A stretch of DNA of 64,000 nucleotides from a virus. The notes under the pieces were generated by a model. That model searched no databases. It was not told the DNA's origin and saw only the letters and a program-made list of their open reading frames with translations. Below, piece after piece: positions 9,397-37,616 of the stretch. The stretch lies in IMG/VR virus record IMGVR_UViG_3300045988_059494, positions 7,219-71,218 of that record; one strand, written 5' to 3'. The position numbers and the translations under genes are program-made. How positions within the stretch are numbered: position 1 is the first letter of the stretch; each line of letters starts with the position of its first letter.

Positions 9397-10558
9397 TCAA
9401 TCTTTCAACACCAAAGTTAATTTCTGCGCCGCACGAGTACAAGCTGTGTAAAGCCACCGAGCATGATCTGCTTGTCTTAATACTTCCTCGACTACTAATA
9501 CCTTATCATACTCGCTACCTTGGGATTTATGAGTCGTGATACAATAGCCATAGTCAAATTGCTCCGGTCGCAACTGCTTAGGAAACAGTCGAAAGTTTTC
9601 TCGATTTACTGTTGTTTCTTTGGTGGTAATAAGTTTCCAATCCATCAAGAGGTCATGAAATGTCTGATCTCTCTTATCAGCATTATCAATCGTCTCAGGG
9701 GTAAAATCAATTAAACACATAGGATTAAGCCACTTATTTGGGACGGTAGCAATCTTATCAATAGTACCAATAGTGCCATTGACGAGAGCGTCTCCAGTCT
9801 CAGTAATCTTATCCCAGTTGTTTTTAAGACAAATAACTTTATCTCCAACAATAGGATTAGGAATGTCTTCACCATAGCGCATATTGCGGTAATAATTATT
9901 TAATGTATGACGAGTAATATTTTTCCCGCAAAGAATCTGATCTGCCCATGTAAACATACCGTCACACATCTCTCTATGACGCACAATATTGATTTCAGTG
10001 CCTTTATAAGGCTTGATAAGTTTACCTTCTCGAATATCTGCGGACAGACGAATAATCTCGCTTTCTGCAGCCTGGCGCATAATTTCATCGAGGAAGATGT
10101 GCGGACGTTCAAGAATGCCATTTTCTTCGCCAATAGGCGGTAACTGACCGGGATCGCCGCAAGCAATTACATAAATGCCATGCGACAGCAGCAAATTCCA
10201 CATAGGCTTAGGTAGCATAGATACCTCGTCAACTACGATAATATCATAATCAGAAATATTATCTTTAGGGATATGAATAAAGCTGCCATCTGCGCGCGGA
10301 ACAGATTTATACAAGAGTCTATGTGCAGTCATAGCAGTGGGACAACCCTTATTTCTTAGTACCTGTGCAGCTTTGCCGGTATAAGCGATATATCCAACTC
10401 TTTCGGGATCAATATCGAGAGCGGAGATAATAAACTTGATAAGAGTAGATTTACCTGTTCCTGCTTTCAGGCGTAGCCAGCGATCACGGTATAATTTTCG
10501 TTTGCGTGATATCTGGCTACAGCAATTTTCAAACCCTCTTCTTGTTTTTTAGTTAATT
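9397..10558 (-). CDS. RecD/Dda-like superfamily 1 helicase; needs -1 frameshift or ~8 nt hop at GCC TGA just before Walker A
   Basis: ATG at 10556-10558 gives MELTKKQEEGLKIAVARYHANENYTVIAGYA then TGA. The Walker A (AGTGKSTLIKF) and the rest of the helicase (track ORF 9397..10332) are in the -1 frame, with no start codon of their own. Confidence 0.55.
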
Positions 10559-11088
10559 CCATCGGGTTTTACTTCCTCCTTTTCTTTTAAATTTAATTCA
10601 TCTATTGTCCACATATTATCATGCAATTCTTTATGACAATTAGAACATAATAATATACATTTTTTACTTTCTTCAACTGCTTCTTGCAACTTAAAGTGGT
10701 CATTACTTATAGTAAAATCCTTTTGTGATGGGTCTAAATGATGAAATTCTAATGCTTTTAGGCATTTACTATAGCCGCATCTTACACATTGACCTCCGCG
10801 TTGCTATTTTATTTTAGACAGAAAGGCCCCTCTTGTTAGCTAAATTCCTTCTGACATACAGTCATAACAACAACTTCTCTAATTAGCCGCAGCACTTTTA
10901 GGGGTGAAAGTTTTTCCACATATAGGGCATTTTTTTTCTTTCAGACCCGAGGCTCCTGTAATTTTTCTCTCTTGATTACGTTGCTTTCTAGCTTGATACA
11001 TACAAGCATCACTACAATATTTTTTTGTGGATTTTATAGCTTCAAACTCTTTTCCACAAACTGTGCATATATTTGTCATAAAAATCAT
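10549..11088 (-). CDS. HNH homing endonuclease with 3 in-frame TAG codons
   Basis: C-terminal CGYSKCLKALEFHHLDPSQKDF...LLCSNCHKELH (HNH); track ORF 10879..11088 ends at TAG and the frame continues; paralog of 53357..53896 with a TAG at the aligned position. Confidence 0.65.
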
Positions 11089-16769: not shown

Positions 16770-17744
16770 TTAGCCAGCGATCAGAAGCTCCAAGTCGTGA
16801 ACAATAAGATCAATCTGTTCAGCTTGCTCAGGAGAACATTCTCCGACTTTCTTTCCTTTACCGAGATACTTGTCAACAATAGCTGTAATCTTTGCGGCAT
16901 TGGACTGATTTGCAGACATCAGCTCACCAACAAGCTCCTGAAAACGAGCTGTCAGTTGGTCAAAATCATAAGCAACATCTTCCGTAACAACCTGTGTTGC
17001 TTCGTTAGAGATGAACTTACCACCGGTTTCTTCTGCCTGCTTGTCAATAGCTCCCGCGATCGCACTTACTAAGTTATCGTAAGTAAATTCAATAGAATTG
17101 GGGATATACTTGAAACGAGAACCTGCTACGTAACGAGGAGTACCTCTCATAAAGAGGCGAGTTTGGACACCTTCATCAGTATTTACGGAAGTAGAATAAC
17201 CAATGATGTCACAAGTTCTTTCGCAAATCAAACGACCTCTCTTATCAAGAGTAGGAACAATCTGATTATACTCATTGCCTTCCTCGTCTTTAAATACCTT
17301 ATCGGTAGAGTGAGAAATAAGAATTAGACCATAATTCAACTGGAGAATCTTGCGGATCGCCTCGTCAAATTCGGTACCAACCATGGAATAACCCTTACCA
17401 TAAGCAAGGTCGGCGATGGTATCAACGCCTTCGCGGTTGCAAATATACTTCTCGCAATAGCTGTAAGCAATATCCGCGGTGTCGATAACAATGGTCTGGA
17501 ACTTCTCCTGTACTTCTGGAGTTTTTAACTCTGTAAATAGCTTCTTAAATTCGCCCCAGCTATTGATCGGCTGGGCGTATACACCTGGCAGTGCATTATA
17601 ACCTTTCTCAAAAGCGAGAAGCAGTGCTCCCGGAAACTTACTGGCAATCGTAGTCTTACCAGACTTAGGAGTGCCATAGAACAAAACGGAATATCCTCTT
17701 AGATCTCTTGATACTTCATGCGGTTTAAGGTCTAGCAAACTCAT
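16770..17744 (-). CDS. RecA-fold ATPase (Sak4-like recombination/annealing ATPase)
   Basis: Walker A GTPKSGKTT; 324 aa; adjacent to a putative SSB. Confidence 0.55.
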   Translation of the reverse strand: MSLLDLKPHEVSRDLRGYSVLFYGTPKSGKTTIASKFPGALLLAFEKGYNALPGVYAQPINSWGEFKKLFTELKTPEVQEKFQTIVIDTADIAYSYCEKYICNREGVDTIADLAYGKGYSMVGTEFDEAIRKILQLNYGLILISHSTDKVFKDEEGNEYNQIVPTLDKRGRLICERTCDIIGYSTSVNTDEGVQTRLFMRGTPRYVAGSRFKYIPNSIEFTYDNLVSAIAGAIDKQAEETGGKFISNEATQVVTEDVAYDFDQLTARFQELVGELMSANQSNAAKITAIVDKYLGKGKKVGECSPEQAEQIDLIVHDLELLIAG

Positions 17745-17821
17745 AAATGATTTTTCTCCTTTATATATTCTTTTATTTAATGAGGAATTAAAAGGGGGTA
17801 GATTAACTACCCCTTATTCAA

Positions 17822-18775
17822 TTAGAAGTTGTAGTCGCCCTTCGCAGGAGTTGCAGCCTTAGTTGCGCCACCGGTCAATGCGTTACCACGAGAAGCCTGA
17901 TACTCGTCCTGACGTCGCTTGATTTCAGCAAGGTGAACCTCACGGTTAGAAATCATTTCAGCAAACTCGGATGCGAGCAGGGTATCTTCGCTATCCCACT
18001 CATAAATTTCTGGCTGTGCCCAGTTGATTACCAGATCACGCTGAGAAGAACGGCTTTCCTTGACGATTGCCTCGCCAAAAGCGTTTTCCTCCTCAATCTT
18101 ACGAACAATAGTTCGAGATACCTGAATACCCTGAACACGAGTAAATACCGGATTGCTACTAGAAGCACCGAGATTTTCAAAGTAATCAAGCGCCTTTGCT
18201 GGAGCATGAGGCTCGTAAACACTGAACTCAACAGGGAGCAGTGCATTGCGGAAATCAAATACACAACCCTTAACAATTACCTTTTCCGGAGTATTGCGCT
18301 CTTCATCTGCCTCAATGCGACGAACATTGGTAATTACCATATCAGTGTTGAAAGTTGCGCGGCTCTTCGGCTCACACAGCTCCTGTACCTGATGAACAAA
18401 GCCACCCTCATTGCGGCGAATAGAGACGAGCTTGTCATCCTTATCATACCACTCATTCAGACCAATGGCAGTATCAATACGAACCTTACCCGCATTTTCC
18501 TTACCATGTTCCATAACAGAACCAATCTTACCACTGATGATAGACTGAAGAACATTGAAAGTGTTGTTGGGCTTACCCTTGGCAGTTACCGCAGTAACAT
18601 AAGTGAAATGAGTCTGCACGACATTGAGCAGTTCATCGTCTGTTGCAACACTCAAAATACCGCTAATAAACTCAGTACCCGGATTCTTAGAGTTTGGGCC
18701 ACTCTTCTTCATTTCCAGCTTGTGCTCGTAAACATAACCCTCTACGTGGGACTCATTCTTCATTTTCTTAGCCAT
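17822..18775 (-). CDS. putative phage single-strand DNA-binding protein (DUF2815-like)
   Basis: 317 aa, Gly/Ala-rich C-terminal tail, gene-order association with the Sak4-like ATPase; inference. Confidence 0.4.
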   Translation of the reverse strand: MAKKMKNESHVEGYVYEHKLEMKKSGPNSKNPGTEFISGILSVATDDELLNVVQTHFTYVTAVTAKGKPNNTFNVLQSIISGKIGSVMEHGKENAGKVRIDTAIGLNEWYDKDDKLVSIRRNEGGFVHQVQELCEPKSRATFNTDMVITNVRRIEADEERNTPEKVIVKGCVFDFRNALLPVEFSVYEPHAPAKALDYFENLGASSSNPVFTRVQGIQVSRTIVRKIEEENAFGEAIVKESRSSQRDLVINWAQPEIYEWDSEDTLLASEFAEMISNREVHLAEIKRRQDEYQASRGNALTGGATKAATPAKGDYNF

Positions 18776-18791
18776 TCTTATTATTCTCCTT

Positions 18792-19172
18792 TTAATTCTC
18801 GTTCAAATTGTTTTTATAGCTGTTAATATCAAAGTTCTTACCTTTTTCAGTCAAGCTATAAATGACAGGGTTCTTGCCATACTTATCTACAAATCCATCA
18901 GTTACGAGCTTTCGAATAGCTCCAGAGATCTTACGAGATGAAATAACCATTCCATCTGCAATATCTTTTGCTTTCCAACTTGTGACATCACAGGACTGTA
19001 AGTATTCCAAAATTGCCAGTCCGCTCTCTGTGAACATTGGCTTCTCCATATCTTGCTGCTCACGCAACAGATTATAGACGTCCTGAACCTCGTCAGGAAG
19101 ATTTACTGGCTCCTTACAATTCTGTACGAGCCAATCGAAATATTCAATAAAACTCTTATACTTATTATTCAT
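18792..19172 (-). CDS. winged-helix DNA-binding protein
   Basis: MarR/PadR-like wHTH region (ISSRKISGAIRKLVTDGFVDKYGKNPVIYSLTEKG). Confidence 0.4.
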   Translation of the reverse strand: MNNKYKSFIEYFDWLVQNCKEPVNLPDEVQDVYNLLREQQDMEKPMFTESGLAILEYLQSCDVTSWKAKDIADGMVISSRKISGAIRKLVTDGFVDKYGKNPVIYSLTEKGKNFDINSYKNNLNEN

Positions 19173-19244
19173 TTATTCATTTCCTTTATTTCTTATGTAT
19201 ATATAATACAATAAAAAAGAAGTTATGTCAATTAGCGCTATCCA

Positions 19245-19883
19245 TCATGCTTCACAAAGAATTAACTCTTGTGCGTACGGAAGAGTTTCAATCCACTTGC
19301 AGAACTCTCTCCATTCGGGGAGACGATGATCGTGACGCTGAACATAAATATTCTTTAGGCAACGATAATTCGTGGTCATGCGCGCAGTAAGCTCAAATCC
19401 CGCGGGATTCGTATAAAGAATTTCAAGATATAATCGTTTCATCTGTTCGGTCAATTCGACAACAAGAGCAACCCTATTGTCCTTTACAGCCCGCGCTCTT
19501 GCTTGATCAAGCGCGTTATAACGAGTGATCTTCTCTTCCATAATATCAATAACACGAGGATCAACATATTCATTATACTGCTCTCGCACATCAAACTTGG
19601 TAATGCGGTGCATCGTACTTTGAGAACTTACAAACTCCAAGAAGCGGTATCTCTCAGCCTCTACCCACATTTTATTAGAGCAGGTTAAATCAAAAGCTAC
19701 TCTAATACCAGTCATAAACTGATTATGTGCGCCATTGCCACTCGATGCTGCTTTTGATAGTCTAGTGCCACGCTTTATATCCTACTCTGTTGCTTCACGC
19801 ATTTCCGCGGTCGTGCGCATTGGATAGCCTGCCGCAACCAAACTCTCTTCAATGTCATAAATCTTTACATTATTTACTTGCAT
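19245..19883 (-). CDS. ThyX-like (flavin-dependent thymidylate synthase family) protein with altered catalytic motif; in-frame TAG at codon 34
   Basis: Aligns with ThyX (WVEAERYRFLEFVSSQSTMHRI vs WFRHRIASYNELSGRY). ATG at 19881-19883; track ORF 19245..19715 is the part after the TAG. Confidence 0.4.
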
Positions 19884-20188
19884 TATTATTCTCCCACTGT
19901 ATTAGAATAGCCTACGACGTTAAAATTGCTAGCTAACCAACAATCTAAATCATCTACAACGGCGACGCATCTCTTGCCTCTAAAGTTATCTATATAGTAT
20001 GAATAGCTAATAAATCCCAAGTTTGATGGAAGCGGCCCCACTTCTGTGATAAATCGTTTTACCTGAGAAGAAGGAGCATTACCAACAAATAAAATTTGCT
20101 TATCGGGATTTTCTTTAGCAAGCTAATTAGCATATCGCATTAAGGTAGCTGTTTTACCAGCTCCTCTATTTGTAATTACCTTAAACAT
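19865..20188 (-). CDS. P-loop NTPase, hypothetical; in-frame TAG at codon 22
   Basis: GGAGG SD, MFKVITNRGAGKTATLMRYAN-TAG-LAKENPDKQILFVGNAP...; no ORF in track because of the TAG. Confidence 0.45.
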
Positions 20189-21099
20189 TAGGAGCCTCCT
20201 CTGGTACTATTTAGACCATAATCTTTTGTTTTATAGAACTCAATCCAATAAGTCTCTCGCTCATTCAACTAAGCTCGAGGCACTTCTTCCAAAACTTCGA
20301 ACATGAAATTATGCTGTCCAGATTTTTGCATTGCCTAATATAACTTATTAGTCGCTGGACCGTAAGCTAAAGAAGTTTTAATGTGTTGCCTAAAACGCTC
20401 TTTAATATCAACAGATTGGCCAATATAGGCCTAACCAGTGATTAGATTAGTAATCTTATAGATACCACAGACTTTAGAGGCTTTTGGAAATAACTTACTC
20501 ATAAGTGCATCATAAGATGGCTTATAATAAGTTTCCCAAATTAGCTTATCAATAGCTTCTTTCTTGAAGAAACGAGTCTATAATTCTCGCAACAGACTTA
20601 TATCATTAACACTTAAATCATCAATAGTTAGTCGATAATAGTCCTAATTTGCGGCACTCTCTTCTTGACGCTATTGAGCTTGGATATACGCTAACTATTT
20701 AGCTTCTAACTGCTCCAGTTTGTCTTGTTCTACTAGAACCTACTAGGCAATTTCCGCGAGTTCTTTTTCCTTTTGCTGTTCAAACTCTTGATAGACTTTT
20801 TCTAATTTTTCAGTTTCTCGCGCATATATTGTCTTTGCGCTCTCTTTGGCTTGCTGCTCTGCGTTTTCCCGCATTTTAGTAGCTGTATCAATTAAAGAGT
20901 TGATAACTTCATTCTACTAATCTATATTAGCTTTTAGCTACATTAAATCTAGATTATGTCGTTCAATATCTGATTCAATGCGCTCATTTTCTGCCTATCG
21001 CTCTCTATTTATTGATACTACTTTAAGCCGATCATTGCGGAGGTGGACAGTATATCCTGCCAAAGCAGCAATAATTAAACCTAATAGTAAATATATCAT
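20188..21099 (-). CDS. TM helix + coiled-coil + C-terminal GIY-YIG domain protein; 13 in-frame TAG codons
   Basis: MIYLLLGLIIAALAGYTVHL (TM), Q/E-rich coiled coil, then GIYKITNLITG-TAG-AYIGQSVDIKERFRQH...ETYWIEFYKTKDYGLNSTRGG (GIY-YIG). Single frame from ATG 21097-21099 to TAA if TAG is sense. Confidence 0.6.
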
Positions 21100-21110
21100 A
21101 ATTAAAAGAA

Positions 21111-21140
21111 GTCGGTAAGAGATATTCTCTTACCGACTCT
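21111..21140. terminator. hairpin terminator
   Basis: AGTCGGTAAGAG/CTCTTACCGACT inverted repeat after the 21148 gene stop. Confidence 0.5.
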
Positions 21141-21147
21141 CAATTTA

Positions 21148-21408
21148 TTACTCCTGTGCGTCAGGATCGAAAGCCATGCCCTTGTCGGTCAAGCGGAGAT
21201 ACTTAACCTTCTGATGGGAGCCATCGGCAAGCTCAACCTCAGCCGGCTCACGAACGCCAAGATCCTTGCGCTGTAGAGCAGATGTAAAGATGCCATCAAC
21301 CTGGCGCTTCTCAAGACCAAGAACCTCAGCGATGTCAGCCGCGGTCAGATCCTTGCCAGCATTGTCCTTCAGATAATCAAAAACCTTACGAGTGTTTTCC
21401 TTCATCAT
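21148..21408 (-). CDS. hypothetical protein (86 aa)
   Basis: ORF track. Confidence 0.3.
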   Translation of the reverse strand: MMKENTRKVFDYLKDNAGKDLTAADIAEVLGLEKRQVDGIFTSALQRKDLGVREPAEVELADGSHQKVKYLRLTDKGMAFDPDAQE

Positions 21409-21433
21409 AATAATTTTTCCTCTCTTAATACAT

Positions 21434-21634
21434 TTATTTATTTTTCGATGCTATCATTGCATCAATTTCCAGTAAAGCATTTATCCCGTCCGGTAGAGCC
21501 ATAATTTGATTAGTAAGAGATATGATTCTAGCTTCAGCACGAGATTTTGCTTCTTTCGAAGCATTTTCATCTTGGTGAATAAGTTCGCATTTGTAGATTT
21601 CGTCCGCAAACTTCTTCATCTGTTTTCGGGTCAT
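21434..21634 (-). CDS. hypothetical protein (66 aa)
   Basis: ORF track. Confidence 0.3.
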   Translation of the reverse strand: MTRKQMKKFADEIYKCELIHQDENASKEAKSRAEARIISLTNQIMALPDGINALLEIDAMIASKNK

Positions 21635-21705
21635 ATAATCTGTCCTTTAACTTTTCTATTGCTTCCTGATTACATTATATATTATATCAGAAAATATTTT
21701 TTAAG

Positions 21706-22854
21706 TCAACAAAAAATTTCTGATATTACGCAATCTTTCGCATCCTTATCATCTCTCTTACACTTGAAAACAGGATGCCGCAGAGTGTGTTCTTTCTTGT
21801 CAACTTGCATACAATCAAGAGCTACAACCGTACCAAGCCATAATTCGGGATGTTCAGTCATCTCTCTTTTATTGTCATCAGTTAATCCAGAGCTAACTGT
21901 ACCTAAGTCAATAAGTTCACCTTTATCATTGTATGCGCCAATTCTAATTGCGGTTTTCCAGCCAAGAAAATAAGGTTTGGTTACTGGTCTATAAATATGA
22001 GGATTATGAACATAATCTTCATAATACTGACCTTCGCTTAATAGCCAAGTATATTCATCATCTTGGTTTTGCTCACCGCGCTCTTCCCAATAAGGCCAGG
22101 TTTCTAGCTCCTTACCAGTATATTCTTTAGTAGCATCGCAAAAACCCGTACAAATTAGGTCAATAGAATCCATCTGTTTAACTTTAATAGTAGACCAAGC
22201 GGGTCTTTTACCAGGACTATATGGATAGTCTTTCTTCTTTAAGACTACGCCCTCACCGCCAGATTTTAAGATACGAGAGATTTCAGCTTCCATATCTTCG
22301 TCAACACGAGTAGCAAGTCTCAAGAAACTATACTGGTTGAGATTATGTTTCTTCCAGATTGCTGCAAGAATTTTATAGCGCAAATCCGCAGGTGAGTTAA
22401 TAAGGTTGACACTATCATATGCAATAATGTCATGCACATAGTAATGAATTGGAGCGTCTTTCTGTCTCTTGATAGCAAGAGTTGGAAGACAACCCATAAT
22501 ACTTACAGTATCTTTCGATGTACCACCGGGAACATAAATTTCTCCAATGAGAATTGTTCCCGCGGGAAGGCAGTTCAATGCTTCTTTTAGGTGAGGTACA
22601 TTGTCACTTTTTTCTGTAAGAATACCAGATACTTTACTTACCGTGCGACCAAAAAGATAACAATGATTTTCGGTTTTTACAAACTGATAAAAGGCTCCGT
22701 CGATCTTCTCTTCAAGAAAATATTCTCCATTAGAGCATACTTCAGAAAGCATAGATTCCTTGCCTGCTGGGAGCTTCCAAATAAGCATCGGCTCAATCAT
22801 TAGCTCCTCTGCTTCGGGATACAACTCATGTATCTTTTCTTTATCAAAACTCAT
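21706..22854 (-). CDS. ATP-dependent DNA ligase
   Basis: KxDG adenylation motif (EEKIDGAFYQ), 382 aa. Confidence 0.8.
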   Translation of the reverse strand: MSFDKEKIHELYPEAEELMIEPMLIWKLPAGKESMLSEVCSNGEYFLEEKIDGAFYQFVKTENHCYLFGRTVSKVSGILTEKSDNVPHLKEALNCLPAGTILIGEIYVPGGTSKDTVSIMGCLPTLAIKRQKDAPIHYYVHDIIAYDSVNLINSPADLRYKILAAIWKKHNLNQYSFLRLATRVDEDMEAEISRILKSGGEGVVLKKKDYPYSPGKRPAWSTIKVKQMDSIDLICTGFCDATKEYTGKELETWPYWEERGEQNQDDEYTWLLSEGQYYEDYVHNPHIYRPVTKPYFLGWKTAIRIGAYNDKGELIDLGTVSSGLTDDNKREMTEHPELWLGTVVALDCMQVDKKEHTLRHPVFKCKRDDKDAKDCVISEIFC

Positions 22855-22947
22855 TTATTGTTATTACCCTTTCTTTTATATAAATATAATATAATAATTA
22901 AAAAGAAAAGTCAATAAAAGAAAGAATGGCGTAGCCATTCTTTCTTA

Positions 22948-25311
22948 TTATACTTGCGTAATAGAGATAGTCTGATCGTTATTCTTCAGCATGATATTAC
23001 CCATAGAAGCTCTTCCAAGAGTGGGAATATCCTTACCACTGATAACAATAGAAGATTTATTGCCATTGATGAGGAGATTATCAGTTTCCTTAATAATCTC
23101 CGCACCCGCAATTTCTTCCTTATAGCACATCAGACCCTTACCTCCACGATTCTGGAGTGTAAGTTCATCAATCTTAATTTTCTTGCCTAAGCCATTCTTA
23201 GAAACAATAGCAAGATAGTCTGCGGGATCTGTGATCGGTAAAGCCGCAATTACACTATCTCCATCATTTAGTTTCATGCCCTTTACACCTTGCGCTGTGC
23301 GAGAAGAAATGGGCATTTCCGCAGTTCCAAAGCGAATGGTCATACCATTTTTAGTTACAAGAATCATCTGCTCTTGATTAATAAATGTAACATCTACGAG
23401 TTCATCATCGCCCTTGAAGCTAATTGCAATAATGCCAGTACGCTTCATTTTATCGTACTCATTTAACGGAACCTTTTTAATAGTGCCGTTTTTGGTAGCA
23501 AAGAAAATAAATTTCTTATCTGTATCTCTTGTTAGAGTAGTAAATGCCATAGGTACTTCGCCATTCTCAAATTCAATTAAGCTAGAGATAGGCGCACCAT
23601 TAGACGCATTAGTACCCTCTGGAATATTGTCTACCAGTATACGATACATCTTACCCTTAGACGAGAATACCATTAAAGTATCCTGAGTATTAGTTCTCTG
23701 CGAAAAGACAATAATATCTCCAGTCTTAACGCCAACAGTATTGCGTTTCTGCGCTTTAAAACTCTTAGCATCAATTCTCTTGATAGTGTTCTTTTTAGAA
23801 ACTACTACAACGCAGTCCTTTGGTTCGACTACTACCATCTCTTTTTCCTGCTTAGGAATATCGACATTGAGAAGTTTAGTTCTACGAGCGTCACCATAAG
23901 TATCTCTTAACTTAGAGATTTTCTCGATAAGAACTTGGTTGCGGATTTCCTTATTAGTTAAAAGGTTGACGCACTCCTCGATAAAAGCTCTCTTTTCTTT
24001 CAACTCATTTACAAGTTCTTCCTTGTCAATGCGTGTTAATTTGCCGAGCTTCATATCAAGAATTGCATTTGCCTGCACTTCATCAACGGTAAGAAATTCC
24101 ATCAACTTAGTGCGGGCGTCTGCGCGACCAGCAGATTGCTTGATAAGCGCGATTACGTCGTCAATTTTATCAACTGCCGCAATTAGACCTTCCAAGATAT
24201 GTGCTCTTGCTTCTGCTTTTTCTTTATCAAAGGTTGTCGCATTGATTAACACATTTTCCTGATGGTCTACATAAGCTCGCAGCAGATCCACCATAGAACA
24301 TAACTTAGGTGTACCATTGACAATATAGTTCATATTATAAGATAGTGTAGACTGCAAATCAGTCAGCAGAAACAGCTTGTTCAAGGCTTTAGATACAGAA
24401 ACACCATCTTTAATATGAAACACCAGTCTATTCTGACCGATATTAGACTCATCATCAAAATCGTCAATCATCTCGCTCAGAACATCAATATTCTTTTCGA
24501 TCTGCTCTTTAATCTTGTTACGATAAGTTCGATAAGGGATGCTTGTAAAAATGATGTCTTGCCCATCAATCTCGTAATCACCTTGAATTTTAAGTGATAC
24601 ATTAGACTTGCCAGATGCAAAAGCAGTCCGCACATCCTTAATATTAAGAACCGTGCCGCCGAGAGGGAAATCTGGACCGGGAATATAAGACAATACTTCA
24701 TCAATAGAAAGATTGCCCTTTTCAATTAGCGCAATCGCAGCGTTACATACCTCAGTAAGATTGTGCGGCGCGGAATTATGTGCCATTGAAATACCAATAG
24801 CTTGACGGCCATTGCAGATAGCATTAGGGAACAATGACGGGAGAATAACTGGCTCCTGGAACTCACCATTATAAGTTTCTTTTGTTGGAACAACTTTCTT
24901 AGCAAAGTCATTCATCATTAGATCAGTAAACTTAGATGGCTTAGCTTCAGTATAACGAGAAGACGAAAACATATCATTGCTCTCTTGCGTACCCAACTGT
25001 CCCTGTCCTGTAACAAGAGGATAGCGCATAAGAAATTCCTGCGCCATCTTACGAAGAACGCCATAACAAGCAATATCGCCATGGAAATAAGAGGTTGCAA
25101 GCGTAGAGCCAATGATAGCATTACACTTCTTTGTTTTACTCTTGCTATCCATTTTTAAGTAATCTTCCATAGTCCACAGGATTTTTCGTTGAGCGCTAAG
25201 GAGTCCATCCTCTGCGGCAGGGATGGCTCGATCAGTCAAGACTTCTTCTGCATATGTCAAGAAATTATCTTTCGCTTCATCAAGAATATCAACTTCAGTA
25301 ATCAAACTCAT
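22948..25311 (-). CDS. type II DNA topoisomerase, GyrA/gp52-like breakage-reunion subunit
   Basis: 787 aa; QRKILWTM, active-site Tyr region; follows the GyrB-like subunit. Confidence 0.85.
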   Translation of the reverse strand: MSLITEVDILDEAKDNFLTYAEEVLTDRAIPAAEDGLLSAQRKILWTMEDYLKMDSKSKTKKCNAIIGSTLATSYFHGDIACYGVLRKMAQEFLMRYPLVTGQGQLGTQESNDMFSSSRYTEAKPSKFTDLMMNDFAKKVVPTKETYNGEFQEPVILPSLFPNAICNGRQAIGISMAHNSAPHNLTEVCNAAIALIEKGNLSIDEVLSYIPGPDFPLGGTVLNIKDVRTAFASGKSNVSLKIQGDYEIDGQDIIFTSIPYRTYRNKIKEQIEKNIDVLSEMIDDFDDESNIGQNRLVFHIKDGVSVSKALNKLFLLTDLQSTLSYNMNYIVNGTPKLCSMVDLLRAYVDHQENVLINATTFDKEKAEARAHILEGLIAAVDKIDDVIALIKQSAGRADARTKLMEFLTVDEVQANAILDMKLGKLTRIDKEELVNELKEKRAFIEECVNLLTNKEIRNQVLIEKISKLRDTYGDARRTKLLNVDIPKQEKEMVVVEPKDCVVVVSKKNTIKRIDAKSFKAQKRNTVGVKTGDIIVFSQRTNTQDTLMVFSSKGKMYRILVDNIPEGTNASNGAPISSLIEFENGEVPMAFTTLTRDTDKKFIFFATKNGTIKKVPLNEYDKMKRTGIIAISFKGDDELVDVTFINQEQMILVTKNGMTIRFGTAEMPISSRTAQGVKGMKLNDGDSVIAALPITDPADYLAIVSKNGLGKKIKIDELTLQNRGGKGLMCYKEEIAGAEIIKETDNLLINGNKSSIVISGKDIPTLGRASMGNIMLKNNDQTISITQV

Positions 25312-25325
25312 AAAATCACTCCTTA

Positions 25326-27224
25326 TTACTCAAAATTGAAACCTAATTCATTAGCATTATCATAGATATACTGCTTGCGAGGTTCCACTGCACTACCCAT
25401 GAGAATATTTAATAGTTCCGTGGTTTTCTCTGCATCAGAGATAGAAATACGTTTATATCTCTCATTCATAAAACATACTTTCTGCAAGTCCTCAGGATTT
25501 AACTCACCAAGACCCTTCGCGCGAAGTAGGTCGTATGAACCGGTATGAGTATTCTTCCATTCGGTCAGTTCATCTTCTGTGTAACAGTAATACTCATTTC
25601 CCTTATGACGAATAATATACAATGGAGTTACAGCTCTGTATAGCTTACCGGCTTCCACAAGAGGACGCATATAAGTATAGAAGAAAGTAATCAGCAGCAA
25701 CTCAATGTCTGCGCCATCACTATCTGCATCAGAAGTAATAACAACCTTGTCGAAATTCATCTTGTTAACATCAAAAGAAGAACCAAATCCAGCACCAATT
25801 ACGCGCACAATGTCAGACATCTCTTGGTTGGCAAGAATTTTTTCTACCGCAGTTTTAAGCGGAGATACGATTTTACCACGCAACATATAGATGCAATCTG
25901 TCTTCGGATTGCGGGCTTCTACTGCGGAGGCGCCTGCAGACAAACCCTCTACTACCAGAAGATTGCGGTTTTTGGGATTCTTATTCGTGCAATCAATAAA
26001 CTTATTACTGATTTGCATTTTTGCCTTTAAACCGGTTTCTTTCTTACCCTTTACACCACGAGCAGCATCACGCGCTTTACGTGCTGCTTCTCTAGCCTTA
26101 CGCGCATTAAGAGCCTTATCCGCGATCTTCTTGACATCTTTTTCATTCGCTGCGAGCCAATACTGAAGCTCTTCAGCGATTGCCGAGGTAAATGGCTTCA
26201 TGTCAAGTTTAACTACTCTACTCTTGGTCTGCGCATCATATGCTACACCCGGCGCAGTTACGTTGAATGCGATATATACGCCTTCTTGACAATCTTCACC
26301 CGTGAGATTTTCGTCCTTGTCTTTCAGCCAACCTTTCTCACGGAAGAACTTATTCATTTCTCTAGTGAGAATAGTCTTTACCTGCGTAATATGCGGACCT
26401 GAATCTGTAAGACCAGTATTTACATACGGAACAATGGTTGCGGAATAAGAATTTGTGTAGGTCAGAACTAAATCCAGCTTGTTCTTGTTATCAGAAAAGT
26501 TGAAGTTCAGACGGTTTTTCAAAATCTCCTTGCCCTGTACTGCCTCGTCCACAAGATCCATTAGACCATTCTTAGAAGAGAAAATTACCTGCGGCTTACC
26601 TTCTACATTTAGCTCGATAGTAAGACCAGGACACAAGCACGCAATTACCTTAAACAAATTGAGAATGGTATTCATATCTACTTCTGGATGAGTGAAGAAC
26701 TCTTCACTTGGCTGCCACTGAACAAGAGTACCAGAAGGATAATTCTTATTATCCCATGCACCACATTCACGCTTCTCAAAGACGCCTTCCTTGAACCAGA
26801 TATGTTCATACTTACCATCTCTATGACTGATTACTTCGAGCCAATGAGAAAGATAAGTGGTCAGCTTACTGCCGATACCGTTCAAGCCAAGAGCTGTACC
26901 TTCATAAACGCCATCATCAGAATACTTACCAGAAGTATTGAGTACGCTAAAAGATGCTTCAAGAACGGTCTTTCCATCGTCTCGCTTGGCATTAGGAATA
27001 AAACCCTGACCATTATCTTCCACGATAATAGTATTATCTTTCTTAATAGTCACGTTAATTTTATTACCATGCCCAGCTTTAAATTCGTCAACTGCGTTAG
27101 ATACAATCTCAATCAACAGCTGAGTAGAGTACTCAGTACTGCCGACGTAAACACCTGGCCGCAGTCTTGTAAATTCAAGAGGCGAGAGTGACTCAATTGA
27201 CTTCTCATCATATAGTTTTCCCAT
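25326..27224 (-). CDS. type II DNA topoisomerase, GyrB/gp39-like ATPase-TOPRIM subunit
   Basis: GHKL ATPase motifs (EIVSNAVDE, DNGQGF), TOPRIM (LLVVEGLSAG); 632 aa. Confidence 0.85.
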   Translation of the reverse strand: MGKLYDEKSIESLSPLEFTRLRPGVYVGSTEYSTQLLIEIVSNAVDEFKAGHGNKINVTIKKDNTIIVEDNGQGFIPNAKRDDGKTVLEASFSVLNTSGKYSDDGVYEGTALGLNGIGSKLTTYLSHWLEVISHRDGKYEHIWFKEGVFEKRECGAWDNKNYPSGTLVQWQPSEEFFTHPEVDMNTILNLFKVIACLCPGLTIELNVEGKPQVIFSSKNGLMDLVDEAVQGKEILKNRLNFNFSDNKNKLDLVLTYTNSYSATIVPYVNTGLTDSGPHITQVKTILTREMNKFFREKGWLKDKDENLTGEDCQEGVYIAFNVTAPGVAYDAQTKSRVVKLDMKPFTSAIAEELQYWLAANEKDVKKIADKALNARKAREAARKARDAARGVKGKKETGLKAKMQISNKFIDCTNKNPKNRNLLVVEGLSAGASAVEARNPKTDCIYMLRGKIVSPLKTAVEKILANQEMSDIVRVIGAGFGSSFDVNKMNFDKVVITSDADSDGADIELLLITFFYTYMRPLVEAGKLYRAVTPLYIIRHKGNEYYCYTEDELTEWKNTHTGSYDLLRAKGLGELNPEDLQKVCFMNERYKRISISDAEKTTELLNILMGSAVEPRKQYIYDNANELGFNFE

Positions 27225-27864: not shown

Positions 27865-27910
27865 ATTATTAGATCGTTGAATCTTCATCAGAAGGGTATG
27901 TCATCTACTA

Positions 27911-28120
27911 CTATGCATTATACATAGCTAGATCGTAGGTAATCCCACCCTTTTTATGATCTGACTTACTCATATTAAGATAGAATGAGCAAACTATCCC
28001 ATGAGCTGACCAAGGTAAACCAACCAACGCACTAATCCAAGGTAAAGACCCCAGATATCCTAAGTGCACGCAATAAAACGCTAACAAAATACCAGAAAGA
28101 GTTACGACCCATAATAGCAA
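27911..28120 (-). CDS. putative holin (two TM segments); ends with TAG TAG TAG
   Basis: Hydrophobic 69 aa ORF immediately downstream of the amidase gene; TTG start per track, start uncertain. If TAG is sense it gains a 15-residue charged tail ending at TAA (~27871). Confidence 0.4.
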   Translation of the reverse strand: MLLWVVTLSGILLAFYCVHLGYLGSLPWISALVGLPWSAHGIVCSFYLNMSKSDHKKGGITYDLAMYNA

Positions 28121-28193
28121 GCGAATATCGCAAATTAACTATTTAGAAAACTCTTTCTTAGATTTTTGTCTATGCTTTTTTTGCTAAGTTGAT

Positions 28194-28937
28194 TTAGTTT
28201 TGCTTTTCAGCATAGCGCTTCAATACAGTAACGAATTCGCCGCGAGTCAGGAAGCTTTTTGGCATCAATTGACCCTTTTCGTTACCTTTAATTAGACCTT
28301 GCTCCTGTGCCCATTTCATTGCCTCTTGTTCCCAAGTCATAGGCTTTAGATCTCTTTGCGCAAGGTAAGTATCCATCATTTTATTAAATTGATCCTGTGT
28401 CACAATTTCTTCCTCCTTTTTAATTGGTGCAGTTGCGGTCAGACGCTTTTTGAAATCAATCCACTTGCTTTCATCGCGTACCCAAGGTTCTGGACAACGC
28501 TTACCAGTTACGTCATAATGTCTAATGACATGGTCTGCCGCAATATTATACTTCTTCATTAACATCTTTACTAGTTCAACTGTACGATTTACTGTTGCTT
28601 CGGTAATGACATATTTACCATTTACAATATCGCTGCACATCTCGACGCCAATAGAATTTCGGTTTGTACAGATATTTCGATATGGGTGATGTGAAGACTC
28701 TAAAGAGCCGCCACAATGCCAAGCACCATCTGAATCCTTTACAGATTGAACTACGCTATTTTCATCTACAAAGTAGTGTGCGGAAGCCTGACGATTAGCT
28801 CCAGAGAAATAGTTGCCATTACCAGCTGCTGTATCTCCGTTATTCGCAGTATAGTGGACTACAATATATAGAATAGAGTTACCACTACGCCCACTATAAT
28901 AATTAGATGAATGAGCGGGAATAAATTTTATTTCCAT
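28194..28937 (-). CDS. N-acetylmuramoyl-L-alanine amidase (endolysin; amidase_2/PGRP fold plus C-terminal domain)
   Basis: YIVVHYTANNG...AHYFVD...VGVEMCSD signature; 247 aa. Confidence 0.8.
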   Translation of the reverse strand: MEIKFIPAHSSNYYSGRSGNSILYIVVHYTANNGDTAAGNGNYFSGANRQASAHYFVDENSVVQSVKDSDGAWHCGGSLESSHHPYRNICTNRNSIGVEMCSDIVNGKYVITEATVNRTVELVKMLMKKYNIAADHVIRHYDVTGKRCPEPWVRDESKWIDFKKRLTATAPIKKEEEIVTQDQFNKMMDTYLAQRDLKPMTWEQEAMKWAQEQGLIKGNEKGQLMPKSFLTRGEFVTVLKRYAEKQN

Positions 28938-29062: not shown

Positions 29063-30433
29063 TTAAATTTTATCAGCAATCGCCGCAATCTTGCTTCGAT
29101 AGATATTCTTAAGAGTGACTTCACCATAACTGTCTTGTCCTCTAAAGATTTTAGAGACACGTTTCATACCGTTATTAGCTCCAGAAAAATGAATGTCATC
29201 TACCTGGGTTTTTTCGTCACCATCAATAATACAAATACAATCTTCGCCAACTCGCTGTAAAGCTAGTTTCATAAGTGTGCGATCTAGGTTTTGAGCTTCG
29301 GAAATATAGATACCTGCGCTCATTCCTGTTGTATCATATCCACGAATATCGGAAAATGGTAGAAGAATTAGCTTGCCGTCCGCGATCATTTTTTCAACAG
29401 CTTCTCTGCCTCCAAATTTACTACTTAGCAAATTACCGATCTGAGAATCTAGTAGTTTTTCATCTTTTGTTCCAGGATAATAACCCAATTTAGCAGAATT
29501 TGCTGTGGCAATAGTGTTACAAAATACGATAATTTTATCTAGCTCTCCGGCTTCTAATTTTGCCATTAAATAAGCAAGAGAAACATAAGTTTTTCCGCTA
29601 CCAGCAGGGCCTTTTACTAAAGTCAACTTATTATTTCGTAAACTATCAAATAACATTTTTTGATAGATGTCATCTTGATATGGGACAATCTTACCAAACC
29701 ATTTAGATTTAATGGGCTTTGAAACAAGATATTTGAATTCATCACCTGTCCAAACCCGCAGGTCTACAATCTTATTGTCTTTATCTTTAATAATGAGATA
29801 CTGTCCCGGCAGTAAACCAAAGTTATTATCTGCCTTTTGATAGAAGTCATTTAACTCATTATCATCTAAGACTACTTCTACATAACCTGTATAGTTATCA
29901 GCATCTTCATTCACGCTTTCTATCATTCCGTGACCAAGAAATTGATTTGCGATATGTTTAAGACTAAGATCGTTAGTCACGAATACAATATCTTCATTCT
30001 TATCTCTTGCGATTGCATCAGACAAGATTCTGGTGTCATCAGTAATATCAAATCCCTTTTTAAGAATGACCTTTTCGTAACAAATCTTATGCGGGACTAC
30101 TTCATATCTATCTGGATATTTCTCAAATAGATGTAACAAGAGACGAGCGGAATATTTTACATCAGCGTCTTTATTAGATGCTGTCTTAATTCTTTCAAGC
30201 TCTTTAAGTGTAATAGAGGATACTAAAAATGGCTTAGTATCTTGCTCAAACAACTCTTCTCCTCCCAACAATAGAGAGCAAGTATCATAAAAATAAGTGT
30301 CTGTTGGGAAGCGAAATTCATTATACATATTCATTGTCCTCTTCGGTTGTGGTAGTGAATCCGATTGTTCTAGTTTGAGTTTTCTACTCACTAAGTTCAC
30401 TAATGGTAACATTGTGTCGAACAATCCTTTCAT
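29063..30433 (-). CDS. PhoH-like ATPase with N-terminal PIN domain (YlaK-type)
   Basis: Walker A GPAGSGKTY, PhoH core; 456 aa. Confidence 0.7.
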   Translation of the reverse strand: MKGLFDTMLPLVNLVSRKLKLEQSDSLPQPKRTMNMYNEFRFPTDTYFYDTCSLLLGGEELFEQDTKPFLVSSITLKELERIKTASNKDADVKYSARLLLHLFEKYPDRYEVVPHKICYEKVILKKGFDITDDTRILSDAIARDKNEDIVFVTNDLSLKHIANQFLGHGMIESVNEDADNYTGYVEVVLDDNELNDFYQKADNNFGLLPGQYLIIKDKDNKIVDLRVWTGDEFKYLVSKPIKSKWFGKIVPYQDDIYQKMLFDSLRNNKLTLVKGPAGSGKTYVSLAYLMAKLEAGELDKIIVFCNTIATANSAKLGYYPGTKDEKLLDSQIGNLLSSKFGGREAVEKMIADGKLILLPFSDIRGYDTTGMSAGIYISEAQNLDRTLMKLALQRVGEDCICIIDGDEKTQVDDIHFSGANNGMKRVSKIFRGQDSYGEVTLKNIYRSKIAAIADKI

Positions 30434-31231: not shown

Positions 31232-32719
31232 TTAGTTCTTATCAGCGATCTTTCCGCCAAGGAAGCCAGCCAGCATAGCCTTTACATCAATGCCGAGAGA
31301 CTCACTCAGTCCCTCAGAAATCTGAGCGACATTATTGATAATATCTCCAGAGAGCTTGCTTGTGTTATCACCAAACATCACAATCTTATCAACATTGGTA
31401 TACGCCTGACCAGTTGCTTCTGCGATAGCCGGGAGCTGCTGGAAGTACATCTTGAGGGCTTCCATCTGCATATCCATCTTAGCAGCTTCACCATACTGCT
31501 TCATGGCTTCTGCCTTCTTCATAAGACCTTCAGCTTCTGCCTCAGCCTTTGCCTGAATAGCAGCTGCCTCTGCTTCACCACGAGCCTTTGCAGCTGCGGC
31601 TTCAGCCTCACCCTGAATACGAATAGCTTCTGCGGTTGCACGCTGTGCTTCAGCTCGCTGCTCTGCTTCAAAACGTTCAGCTTCTGCGGTCTTCTGACGC
31701 TCATAGAGGTCAGCCTCAGACTGCTTCTGCGTTGCGTAGAGTCGCGCATCAGCTTCCTGCTGAGCGGCATACTTCTTAGCCTCAGCGGTCTTCTTTACCT
31801 CAGCTTCCAGAGCACGTTCCTTGATAGTAACTTCGCGTTCCTTAAGGTCGATTTCCTTCTCCTGACGAGCAATATCTGCGTCAGCCGCTGCAACGTCACG
31901 CAGCTTGCGCTGGTTCTCAGACTCGATTTCCATAGCAGCATTAGCCTGAGCCTGCTTAGTATCGGATTCCTGCTTCAGCTGAGCCTTCTGGATAGCAAGA
32001 CTATTATTGCGCTTAGCAATCTCTTCCTCAGCCTTTACACGAGCGTCATTAGAAGCCTTAGCATTTTCTGCTTCAGCGACTGCAATCTCACGCTGGGCAT
32101 TAGACTTAGCAATAGCAGCATCCTTGCGAATCTGCTCGACATTATCAATACCAAGGTTGGTGATAACATCATTGTCATCAGAGAAGTTCTGAACATTAAA
32201 GGAAACCAGTTCCAGACCGAAACGAGCCAGATCAGGCACCGCATTTTCCTGTACCTTTTCGGAGAATGCCTTGCGGTCGCCAACCATCTCGGTCAGCTTC
32301 ATCTGACCTACAATCTCACGGATATTACCTTCAAGGAGATCGTTAATCTTCTGAGCAATCTCCGCACGGGATACATTCAGAAAGTTCTGTGCAGCAAGAG
32401 CAATCATTTCATCGGTCTGTCCTACTCGTACAGAAACAGTGGAGTCAACGCGTACATTGATGTATTCCGCGGTGGGAACAGCAGATCCTGTCTTTACGTC
32501 GATCTGAATAGCGCCAAGTGCCAGCTTATCCATTCGCTCAAGGAAAGGAATTTTAATACCAGCCTTGCCAGCAAGCACTCGCGGTTTCTTGTGCATACCA
32601 GAAATGATATATGCCACATCCGGCGGAGCCTTTACATAGCTCGAAACAAGAAATACGATAATCGCAAGCACGATAATCGCTACGGGAACAAAGGGAAGGA
32701 TAGTAGTTAGAATTTCCAT
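31232..32719 (-). CDS. SPFH/band-7 (flotillin-like) membrane protein
   Basis: N-terminal TM, SPFH domain, long Ala/Glu-rich coiled coil (EAERFEAEQRAEAQRATAEA...); 495 aa. Confidence 0.7.
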   Translation of the reverse strand: MEILTTILPFVPVAIIVLAIIVFLVSSYVKAPPDVAYIISGMHKKPRVLAGKAGIKIPFLERMDKLALGAIQIDVKTGSAVPTAEYINVRVDSTVSVRVGQTDEMIALAAQNFLNVSRAEIAQKINDLLEGNIREIVGQMKLTEMVGDRKAFSEKVQENAVPDLARFGLELVSFNVQNFSDDNDVITNLGIDNVEQIRKDAAIAKSNAQREIAVAEAENAKASNDARVKAEEEIAKRNNSLAIQKAQLKQESDTKQAQANAAMEIESENQRKLRDVAAADADIARQEKEIDLKEREVTIKERALEAEVKKTAEAKKYAAQQEADARLYATQKQSEADLYERQKTAEAERFEAEQRAEAQRATAEAIRIQGEAEAAAAKARGEAEAAAIQAKAEAEAEGLMKKAEAMKQYGEAAKMDMQMEALKMYFQQLPAIAEATGQAYTNVDKIVMFGDNTSKLSGDIINNVAQISEGLSESLGIDVKAMLAGFLGGKIADKN

Positions 32720-34680: not shown

Positions 34681-35199
34681 TTAATTGGTTTGCTCAGTAA
34701 AATAGACTTGTGAAAGTCCACCAATGTCATCAATCTCGTAACTATCTACTTTTAATGACCAATCTTCCCATAAGTCCTGATGCGCTAACAAGAAAGCCAA
34801 TGGATCTTTTCGAAAAGTTTTATAGTCTTCGTCAGACAGCTCAAGATCTCCATTGTAATATCCGCCTCGTAGATGGCCAGTAACATAATCTACTTCTGCG
34901 GTTACATTAACTTTATGAGTTACCTCAGCCGGAGTATCAAGAGAGATATAATATTTTTTGCCATTGATTTTCTTCCAGAATGAATAATTACTCTTTGGAT
35001 AGCCGACTTTTCTTTCTAGAATATCTTCCTTGGTATTAGACTGCAATATAATGACCGGGTTTCTACGCGGGTCTTGACCAATTGGGTGGAAATCTACCCC
35101 ATCCGCGCCAGTGATTTCAAGCCATTCTTTCCATCCTGTTTCTCTTTGCCATTCAGCCATAATTATTCCTCTTCGCTCTGGATTAGGGATTCGATACAC
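34681..35199 (-). CDS. hypothetical protein (172 aa)
   Basis: ORF track. Confidence 0.3.
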   Translation of the reverse strand: MYRIPNPERRGIIMAEWQRETGWKEWLEITGADGVDFHPIGQDPRRNPVIILQSNTKEDILERKVGYPKSNYSFWKKINGKKYYISLDTPAEVTHKVNVTAEVDYVTGHLRGGYYNGDLELSDEDYKTFRKDPLAFLLAHQDLWEDWSLKVDSYEIDDIGGLSQVYFTEQTN

Positions 35200-36005: not shown

Positions 36006-36152
36006 TCTTTGCTTGCTCCTTCCATTTCTTTCGCTTTTTGTTTAAGTTCCTCAATACTTGTTCCAAGAAGAGCGAAGAAAGTTTCATCGTCCATTTTGGC
36101 GAGATCTCGTTCCATGTTTTCGAGAGTCTTAGATAGCTTACGTAGCTTCATT
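36003..36152 (-). CDS. small hypothetical protein (49 aa), translationally coupled (ATGA overlap) to the Thg1-like gene
   Basis: MKLRKLSKTLENMERDLAKMDDETFF... Confidence 0.3.
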
Positions 36153-37480: not shown

Positions 37481-37565
37481 TACAAAACCTCCTTAGTTAA
37501 ATCAATCGCATTATCTGCAATAAATGGATAATCTAAATCAAATAAGATATAACAGCCATTACTTT

Positions 37566-37612: not shown

Positions 37613-37616
37613 AAAT

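Follow-up and report, generated by a model that had tools for sequence, protein, structure and literature searches.

Can a stretch of viral DNA that appears empty of genes under the standard code hold a conserved gene, and what might such a gene do? The question was raised by positions 19716..21148 of a 64,000-nucleotide (nt) stretch from the IMG/VR virus record IMGVR_UViG_3300045988_059494 (positions 7,219 to 71,218 of that record; the whole stretch is hereafter called the window). For this interval, an initial annotation had reported no open reading frame (ORF) of 60 amino acids (aa) or more, and had proposed a gene of about 300 codons carrying 13 in-frame TAG codons. We describe here this gene, called the GIY-YIG gene after the nuclease domain it is predicted to encode, together with its family, its context and its possible functions.

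A single reading frame with thirteen TAG codons

The ORF track indeed contained no standard-code ORF of at least 60 aa in 19716..21148, and the proposed gene was recovered there as a single minus-strand frame, running from the ATG at 21099..21097 to the TAA at 20190..20188. This frame comprised 303 sense codons, of which 13 were TAG (codons 35, 54, 61, 62, 119, 120, 135, 143, 152, 174, 223, 255 and 277). It contained no TAA or TGA, while the five other frames of the same stretch contained 12 to 34 each; from the trinucleotide frequencies of the window, the chance of 303 codons free of both was about 1.5e-7.

Comparison with homologues supported the decoding of TAG as glutamine (Gln). At the near-invariant Gln column of the YIGQS motif, CAA or CAG was found in 29 of 55 distinct members, TAG in 22 and a codon for another residue in 4. 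The positions of TAG varied between homologous genes (8 TAG in locus L001, 13 in L004 and 5 in L009) and aligned with Gln codons, not with gene ends. Conserved columns only were used, as a tally of the residues opposite TAG over the whole alignment was uninformative, the unalignable stalk of the protein being dominated by E and K. With TAG counted as Gln, the window gene differed from two close relatives by 15 to 19 synonymous changes and 1 non-synonymous change (ratio of non-synonymous to synonymous substitution rates, dN/dS, of 0.013 to 0.017); codons 255 and 262 were among those changed, by TAG/CAG swaps. For a more distant pair, dN/dS was 0.078, and purifying selection was strong along the whole length of the gene. 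The initial annotation had also suggested looking for a single-ORF homologue in standard-code phages: such a relative, L007, in which TAG is a stop, encoded the whole protein in one ORF that had no internal TAG and closed with a TAG stop codon.

The opposite reading, in which the locus is a pseudogene in decay or a pair of genes divided by true TAG stops, could draw on the empty standard-code track and on the orthologue of phage Phass-1, annotated in GenBank as two fragments. It was ruled out by the 303 codons without TAA or TGA, by dN/dS values of 0.01 to 0.08, by the alignment of TAG with Gln and by the uninterrupted ORF of L007, and we consider its probability negligible. Separate genes for the membrane and nuclease parts, with TAG codons at their ends, were the outcome that the initial annotation had named as speaking against a single gene; full-length homologues and the single ORF of L007 were found instead. 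On this sequence evidence, the locus is one functional gene of a phage that would read TAG as Gln.

Proteomics in crAss-like phages displayed TAG decoded as Gln late in infection (PMC9523058), and peptide-level validation of this decoding is limited to these phages. Amber-suppressor tRNA(CTA) genes were present in the relatives L006 (Phass-1), L065 and L067; in Phass-1, two tRNA-Sup(CTA) genes lay about 300 nt downstream of the orthologue. As a separate observation, a tRNA cluster of the window with tRNA-Gln(CTG) and tRNA-Gln(TTG), and without tRNA(CTA), included a tRNA-like gene at 59553..59626 (minus strand) with an 8-nt anticodon loop, a four-base anticodon 'taaa' assigned by ARAGORN and an Rfam tRNA score of only 31.3 bits, which could be degenerate or encode an unusual decoding tRNA.

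Architecture of the encoded protein

The predicted protein consisted of four parts, a membrane anchor, a helical stalk, a conserved linker and a nuclease domain (Table 1). The hydrophobic anchor was found in all 51 distinct family members tested and started at residue 1 to 8. In these members essentially no K or R preceded the anchor, and 3.6 on average followed it within 15 residues; by the positive-inside rule, the region C-terminal of the anchor, including the nuclease domain, is therefore predicted to lie on the cytoplasmic side.

The AlphaFold2 model (19-sequence alignment; mean predicted local distance difference test, pLDDT, of 78) placed residues 2-150 in a single helix, of which the portion from about residue 40 to residue 130 reached a pLDDT above 90. 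The stalk, about 130 residues long and with a net charge of -8, could span up to about 19 nm if straight. A membrane helix followed by a coiled coil had been proposed initially; the helix and the long stalk were both predicted, whereas the coiled coil was not established because no single heptad register was obtained along the stalk. Stutters within a coiled coil may account for this, or the stalk may be one stable helix on its own. The linker, residues 151-210, was among the best-conserved parts of the protein and was modelled as a strand (155-157) and two helices (161-174 and 180-203) with pLDDT of about 81-86; no Pfam, NCBIfam or PHROG model matched it.

The C-terminal domain matched PF01541 over residues 211-292 (32.3 bits against a 22.6-bit cut-off, E = 1.2e-7), and the model showed a beta-beta-alpha-alpha-beta-alpha core over residues 211-291. 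Residues Y214, Y225, R235, H239, E282 and N297 corresponded to Y6, Y17, R27, H31, E75 and N90 of I-TevI, and these six catalytic residues were invariant across 17-19 homologues. The group I intron endonuclease profile TIGR01453 scored 76.2 bits, above its curated 56.05-bit cut-off, over profile positions 3-86 of 215 only, and homing-endonuclease profiles from PHROG and TIGR matched in the catalytic part only. No DNA-binding module (NUMOD, IENR1 or helix-turn-helix, HTH) was found in Pfam and PHROGs profile searches. For the stalk and linker, Pfam, NCBIfam, PHROGs and PADLOC yielded no credible match, the weak ones to MORF, WWE, V-ATPase E, ZorA and SMC being rejected as coiled-coil noise.

No model in Pfam, NCBIfam or PHROGs covered the whole protein, and a search of BFVD gave two viral proteins, both unnamed, that share its overall fold (A0A345BPZ2, 304 aa, 33% identity). 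Taken with hydropathy, the AlphaFold2 model, PF01541 and the catalytic residues, the proposed order (transmembrane helix at the N-terminus, then a long helix, then the GIY-YIG domain at the C-terminus) was upheld, and the identity of the protein as an anchor, a stalk, a two-helix linker and a catalytically intact GIY-YIG domain is almost certain. The expression 'membrane-tethered nuclease', used in the initial annotation, stands as a description of what the sequence predicts. The architecture had also been called unusual, which holds in so far as no whole-protein model exists in these databases; it is nevertheless that of a common, conserved gut-phage family, not a one-off fusion.

Phi29 p16.7, RNase Y and DUF4041-T5orf172 proteins combine an N-terminal anchor, a helical spacer and a cytoplasm-facing C-terminal nucleic-acid domain. 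Their overall layout resembles that of the family protein by analogy only, no sequence relationship being detected: the GIY-YIG protein had no Pfam match to DUF4041, T5orf172, KH or HD at E <= 0.1.

Distribution of the family

More than 850 database proteins matched, the best 120 over essentially their full length. A profile search of 1.84 billion cluster representatives returned 706 clusters (50% identity) at E <= 1e-30, and among the best 150 of these, nearly all proteins were about 300-350 aa long and matched end to end. In their sources they were named only 'hypothetical protein' or 'YoxC'. The contigs carrying them were typically 90-155 kb long and came from gut metagenomes, and all relatives found lay on phage contigs or on phage-sized contigs inside bins of metagenome-assembled genomes (MAGs). 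Bacterial genome collections, scanned with narrow search patterns, yielded only 4 matches, all on phage-sized contigs (148-151 kb) in MAG bins assigned to Oscillospiraceae, Eubacterium, Lachnospiraceae and Clostridia; the scan revealed neither a prophage nor a chromosomal copy.

Megablast of window positions 17000..26000 against GenBank phages gave no match, so that this region has no close cultured or deposited relative there. A contig nearly identical to that of the window is IMGVR_UViG_3300045988_051734 (100,920 bp). When two family members were searched by tblastn against 50,697 phage records, only Phass-1 shared more than the nuclease domain; matches in Enterococcus phage EF1 and in Listeria, Bacillus and Salmonella phages were discarded as ordinary N-terminal GIY-YIG homing endonucleases, e.g., inside DNA polymerase III (Pol III) alpha. 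The Phass-1 orthologue (L006 / OQ749652.1 63005..63985; 'Caudoviricetes code 15 clade') is split in GenBank into two hypothetical proteins, 63845..63985 and 63005..63439, with the TAG-rich stalk between them unannotated. The Phass-1 paper did not mention the gene, and a search of the literature on membrane-anchored GIY-YIG phage proteins found nothing relevant.

All 27 ligase-anchored IMG/VR loci carried the family gene about 0.4-0.7 kb downstream of the ligase, down to 38% ligase identity. Given this presence in every such locus, it is a fixed core gene and not a sporadic mobile one. GC content (0.34-0.38) was slightly below that of the flanks and lent no support to a recent acquisition.

This fixity bears on whether the gene is an active free-standing homing endonuclease, targeting the thymidylate-synthase region of phages that lack the gene (intron-less homing). 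Its TIGR01453 score, its 32-38% identity to I-TevI and to the canonical homing endonucleases of the window, a TAG share within the range of the latter, and its intergenic position, directly flanked by a terminator upstream and a thymidylate-synthase (Thy) gene downstream, could all be accommodated by homing. I-TevI itself resides in the T4 td gene. The family protein shares with I-TevI-like enzymes (TIGR01453; PDB 1ln0, 1mk0) the catalytic fold and key residues, at about 32% identity, as well as the adjacency of its gene to a thymidylate-synthase gene. It differs from I-TevI in its C-terminal rather than N-terminal catalytic domain, in the added anchor and long stalk, in the lack of a linker, zinc finger or HTH DNA-binding module of the I-TevI kind, and in being fixed and syntenic. 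The occurrence in 27 of 27 loci, the purifying selection over the full length, the displaced catalytic domain, the absence of NUMOD, IENR1 or HTH matches in Pfam and PHROGs, and an anchor universal among the members tested all argue against active homing, as does the usual layout kept by the canonical homing endonucleases of the same window. We regard it as rather improbable. The I-TevI type of the domain and the adjacency to Thy genes suggest, as its probable ancestor, a homing endonuclease associated with thymidylate synthase, whose DNA-binding half was lost and which became fixed.

Ordinary mobile endonucleases were also recorded. Homing endonucleases with an N-terminal GIY-YIG domain lay at 5798..6643, 43750..44499 and 61600..62223, and an HNH endonuclease gene at 10549..11088, all on the minus strand and all with TAG. 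DNA polymerase III alpha is interrupted by the first of these, its pieces lying at 4267..5715 and 6821..9334, and the HNH gene adjoins a RecD/UvrD-like helicase fragment (9397..10332) that lacks the N-terminal Walker A part. In L007 (6988..9902), the two parts of gyrB were separated by a gene for a canonical GIY-YIG homing endonuclease of 235 aa.

TAG load and late-class codon use

Within the window, the GIY-YIG gene carried 4.3 TAG per 100 codons against 0.17 in the other minus-strand genes (Fisher p = 1.3e-9), and TAG accounted for 48% of its Gln codons; the neighbouring gyrase, ligase, helicase and primase genes had no TAG at all. Across about 50 IMG/VR loci, most TAG-bearing members showed 2-7.5 TAG per 100 codons (up to 25 TAG) compared with 0-0.9, mostly below 0.3, in their 8-kb flanks, and a few members had zero or one TAG. 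In the complete Phass-1 genome, the orthologue ranked 7th of 109 genes with 2.45 TAG per 100 codons, the structural arm reaching 1.60 and the orthologue's own arm 0.28. The first TAG was placed just after the membrane helix, at codon 35 in the window and at codons 23-49 in 45 of 49 TAG-bearing members, so that in the standard code the gene would yield a short membrane peptide only.

In code 15 phages, translation of genes that bear TAG is believed to await the code switch. The family gene shares in-frame TAG as Gln with the code 15 late genes of crAss-like phages and Phass-1; unlike these, it is neither structural nor lytic, and it lies inside a TAG-poor replication arm. Near-zero TAG would mark genes needed early. 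Since the change from CAG to TAG is a single transition and silent under suppression, a gene that is dispensable until the switch should show a TAG share near 30-50%. The GIY-YIG protein would accordingly be placed in the post-switch class, whether or not its run of TAG is an evolved lock.

The only equally TAG-dense gene of the window was a holin-like ORF at 27869..28213 (5 TAG in 114 codons, 71% of its Gln codons), a density that fits a lethal lysis step locked by the code switch. This 114-aa ORF overlaps the endolysin gene and encodes a multi-pass membrane protein that is holin-like by eye, without a family match. Together with the endolysin (28194..28937; Amidase_2 and SLH domain, 0 TAG), it forms a lysis cassette at 27869..28937 on the minus strand, 7 kb from the GIY-YIG gene. 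The initial annotation had noted a likeness to i-spanins, and a lysis-associated role, as an i-spanin-like protein or a holin/antiholin accessory, could be sought in the N-terminal membrane helix followed by long helices, as in Rz-type i-spanins, in the TAG density equal to that of the holin-like gene, and in reports that recoded TAG is typical of lysis and structural genes (PMC10607447). The likeness did not hold beyond this general layout. The C-terminus is predicted to be cytoplasmic, a topology opposite to that of i-spanins; the gene lay outside the lysis cassette and always in the replication module; no o-spanin partner was seen among its neighbours (a small TAG-free gene, the mini P-loop gene and the ThyX-like gene described below); and the nuclease residues were intact and invariant. 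Moreover, the SLH-amidase endolysin and the Clostridia MAG bins of related contigs suggest a wall-bearing Clostridia host without outer membrane, in which spanins are not expected. A role in lysis is thus very improbable.

Codon use of the opposite kind was observed in a gene for an SPFH/flotillin-like membrane protein (31232..32719, minus strand, 495 aa), whose Gln codons were 31 CAG, 0 CAA and 0 TAG, the most extreme CAG bias of the window.

A terminator-like hairpin abutting the start codon

Immediately upstream of the gene, an intrinsic-terminator-like hairpin was found with a folding energy of -20 to -22.7 kcal/mol (z = -5.8). The gap between it and the ATG is too short for a promoter. 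A hairpin ending at most 25 nt from the start was present in 25 of 39 distinct family upstream regions and in 5 of 401 other genes at the same loci, and 7 of 12 pairs displayed compensatory changes. No Shine-Dalgarno (SD) sequence was present at the start codon in the clade of the window. Of 27 hairpins upstream of the family gene, counted in the window and family loci L012-L075, 22 had a purine-rich, SD-like 5' arm (GGAG, AGAGG, AGGAGG), compared with 58 among 143 other terminator-like hairpins; the sequences are related, so that the statistic is not clean. With such a 5' arm, the 3' arm of the hairpin resembles an anti-SD sequence.

Two promoter-like sites were noted (Table 1): one just past the ThyX-like gene, from which the following unit, free of TAG, may be transcribed, and one inside the GIY-YIG gene; such matches were no more numerous than in shuffled sequence.

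Table 1. Coordinates in the window of the GIY-YIG gene, the parts of its predicted product and adjacent features.
Feature	Codons	Position	Strand	Basis and remarks
Complete GIY-YIG gene		20188..21099	(-)	303 sense codons + TAA, 13 TAG predicted to be read as Gln; full-length homologues, dN/dS
N-terminal transmembrane anchor (predicted), MIYLLLGLIIAALAGYTVHL	1-20	21040..21099	(-)	mean hydropathy 2.0, sole such segment
Acidic Q/E/K-rich helical stalk (predicted)	21-150	20650..21039	(-)	AlphaFold2; 8 of the 13 TAG codons
Conserved linker (DYYRL...LLRELQ.RF.KKE.IDKLIWE.YYKP.YD)	151-210	20470..20649	(-)	invariant columns in two alignments, A1 and A2
I-TevI-type GIY-YIG nuclease domain	211-303	20191..20469	(-)	profile matches, catalytic residues
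Intrinsic-terminator-like hairpin		21109..21139	(-)	13-14 bp stem and U-run; stem ends about 9 nt before the ATG
Upstream 86-aa gene, TAG-free		21148..21408	(-)	terminates just short of the hairpin; completes the TAG-free gyrB-gyrA-ligase block 21706..27224
100-aa mini P-loop protein		19886..20188	(-)	Walker A GAGKT, Walker B VVDDLD; 1 TAG; strong GGAGG site
Divergent ThyX-like gene		19245..19883	(-)	1 TAG; last of a three-gene TAG-bearing unit
Promoter-like site TTGACA-17-TATTAT (11 of 12)		19203..19231	(-)	consensus match; just downstream of the ThyX-like gene
Second promoter-like site		20524..20552		consensus match; inside the GIY-YIG gene

Genomic neighbourhood

The family gene occupied a fixed place in the order gyrB - gyrA - small - ligase - small - small - GIY-YIG gene - mini P-loop - ThyX (or ThyA + DHFR), followed further along by YorF - AAA_24 - YorH - DnaB, and synteny was alike in L001, L004 and L009. 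In most loci, the next gene overlapped the stop of the family gene by 1-4 nt and was either the mini P-loop gene, itself followed by a Thy gene, or a ThyX or ThyX-like gene directly.

In the window, the ATG of the mini P-loop gene overlaps the TAA of the nuclease gene by 1 nt (TAATG), so that the two are translationally coupled. The mini P-loop protein was a conserved downstream partner of 91-106 aa in the sub-clade of the window, with weak AAA/P-loop Pfam matches only, and might regulate or partner the nuclease. The ThyX-like protein of the window had no Pfam match at E = 0.01, its orthologues in L001 and L009 carried precomputed Pfam Thy1 matches, clear Thy1 genes lay directly downstream of the family gene in L051 and L060, and L004 had ThyA and DHFR at this position. 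In a ThyX-like group comprising the window, L038, L055, L064 and L073, the Pfam Thy1 match was weak or absent and the S.RY motif was replaced by STMH(R/K). The divergent ThyX-like protein could be a thymidylate synthase or an enzyme with changed activity.

More broadly, the gene was surrounded by gyrase, ligase, helicase, primase and Pol III genes, i.e., by a replication and nucleotide module. Such company would suit a structure-specific nuclease or nickase acting on phage DNA at the membrane, in branch resolution or in the processing of replication intermediates before packaging, akin to phage replication organised at the membrane, and late timing would fit debranching at that stage. SLX1 and UvrC are examples of structure-specific enzymes with a GIY-YIG domain. 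The domain described here is however of I-TevI type and not of SLX1 or UvrC type, neither a partner nor a DNA-binding surface was identified, and no link to terminase or packaging genes was seen, which leaves this role about as improbable as homing.

Away from this module, the minus strand carried an auxiliary set across 944..3466, 29063..30433 and 35163..53421, encoding the anaerobic ribonucleotide reductase NrdD/NrdG, a protein combining PhoH and PIN, a Thg1-like tRNA-His guanylyltransferase, NadE, NAMPT and a PRPP-synthetase-like protein (NAD salvage), an RNA ligase and a Ro/TROVE-like RNA-binding protein. No structural genes were found within the 64-kb window.

Possible function

By analogy, the reading ranked first, and held tentatively, is that of a late, membrane-tethered DNase for host-DNA breakdown, coupled to thymidine monophosphate (dTMP) synthesis and nucleotide salvage. 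Early in infection, production of the protein would be restrained three times: transcripts would have to read through the terminator; the start codon, without a Shine-Dalgarno sequence, would stand 9 nt from a hairpin of -20 kcal/mol; and the 13 TAG codons would limit the product to 34 residues for as long as amber suppression is off. From these stacked restraints we infer a protein made late and in small amounts, and such late and sparing production would be explained if the enzyme is dangerous. As no sequence-specific DNA-binding domain was found, the enzyme is probably a non-specific or structure-dependent DNase, located by prediction at the inner face of the membrane. At a stage when host genes have become dispensable, it would cleave the host chromosome close to the membrane, and the cut DNA would feed nucleotide salvage with the co-expressed thymidylate synthase. 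The tether may keep the nuclease off replicating phage DNA.

The closest functional parallel, compared by description only, is T4 endonuclease II (DenA), a GIY-YIG enzyme that degrades host DNA and whose gene lies in the nrd-td-frd nucleotide cluster. DenA is about 136 aa long, soluble and early, and spares phage DNA because of hydroxymethylcytosine. Both are phage GIY-YIG nucleases without a homing function beside nucleotide-metabolism genes; unlike DenA, the family protein is predicted to be membrane-anchored and shows late-class TAG use, and no DNA modification was found with it.

Several points weigh against a late DNase for host-DNA breakdown. T4 endonuclease II is an early enzyme, whereas the GIY-YIG gene seems to be a late one. 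Neither a modification of phage DNA nor a nuclease inhibitor that would protect the phage genome was found, and genomes of the L004 type, with canonical ThyA and DHFR, gave no hint of a modification-based distinction between phage and host DNA. Adjacency to Thy genes may be historical, a trace of homing-endonuclease ancestry, rather than functional. ARAGORN and Rfam detected no amber-suppressor tRNA(CTA) in the 64-kb window, the rest of the genome lying outside it. Finally, high TAG could merely reflect a lack of selection in a weakly expressed gene, and not an evolved lock.

The same tether could instead serve superinfection exclusion or competition between phages, the nuclease cutting incoming phage or plasmid DNA while resident DNA lies deeper in the cell. 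An anchor and a stalk of this length would place the active site at the point of DNA entry, the lack of a sequence-specific DNA-binding domain would suit such a task, and a weak hint came from UzuA of the Uzume anti-phage system (PADLOC PDLC03973, PDLC03974), likewise a single protein of about 280-310 aa with a C-terminal GIY-YIG domain and the same domain order (E = 4.7e-9, P0088). This match was however limited to the nuclease part (profile positions 181-277 of 278), and UzuA is a bacterial defence gene while the family gene is a phage core gene; a literature search on the Uzume mechanism found nothing relevant (UzuA: 10.1101/2024.10.26.620412). Exclusion functions are usually early, whereas the GIY-YIG gene has late-class TAG and sits behind a terminator, and its conserved context is nucleotide metabolism and not a defence or moron locus. 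Exclusion is accordingly an unlikely role, though the next most probable after host-DNA breakdown.

A more speculative possibility, to which we give a slightly lower probability than to homing or branch resolution, is a genetic-code-dependent developmental switch with two products, locking a lethal nuclease and yielding a micropeptide with a function of its own. Before suppression, transcripts escaping the terminator would give a membrane micropeptide of about 25-45 residues, which might, e.g., prime or block a membrane site; after the switch, the same mRNA would give the full nuclease. The SD-like terminator hairpin could then act as a second sensor, through antitermination or as a mimic of a ribosome-binding site.

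Significance for the family and for code 15 phages

The GIY-YIG gene belongs to a large unnamed phage family, for which the recognition of the architecture is new, TAG recoding and the GIY-YIG fold being already known. The family-wide late-class TAG load inside a TAG-free arm is also new, as are the conserved terminator abutting the start codon and the tight coupling to Thy genes. Annotation in the standard code fragments this family, the Phass-1 copy in GenBank being an example. If the late, membrane-restricted DNase proved true, the phage would use a non-specific nuclease without modifying its own DNA, and a homing-endonuclease domain would have been turned into a core phage function. In gut phages, TAG-to-Gln recoding is believed to time the expression of late genes, and support for this view has so far come mainly from structural and lysis genes. 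Because it lies in a TAG-free early arm, carries late-class TAG in each recoded lineage studied and has untagged standard-code relatives, the traceable family gene offers a natural read-out of the timing and manner of the code switch.

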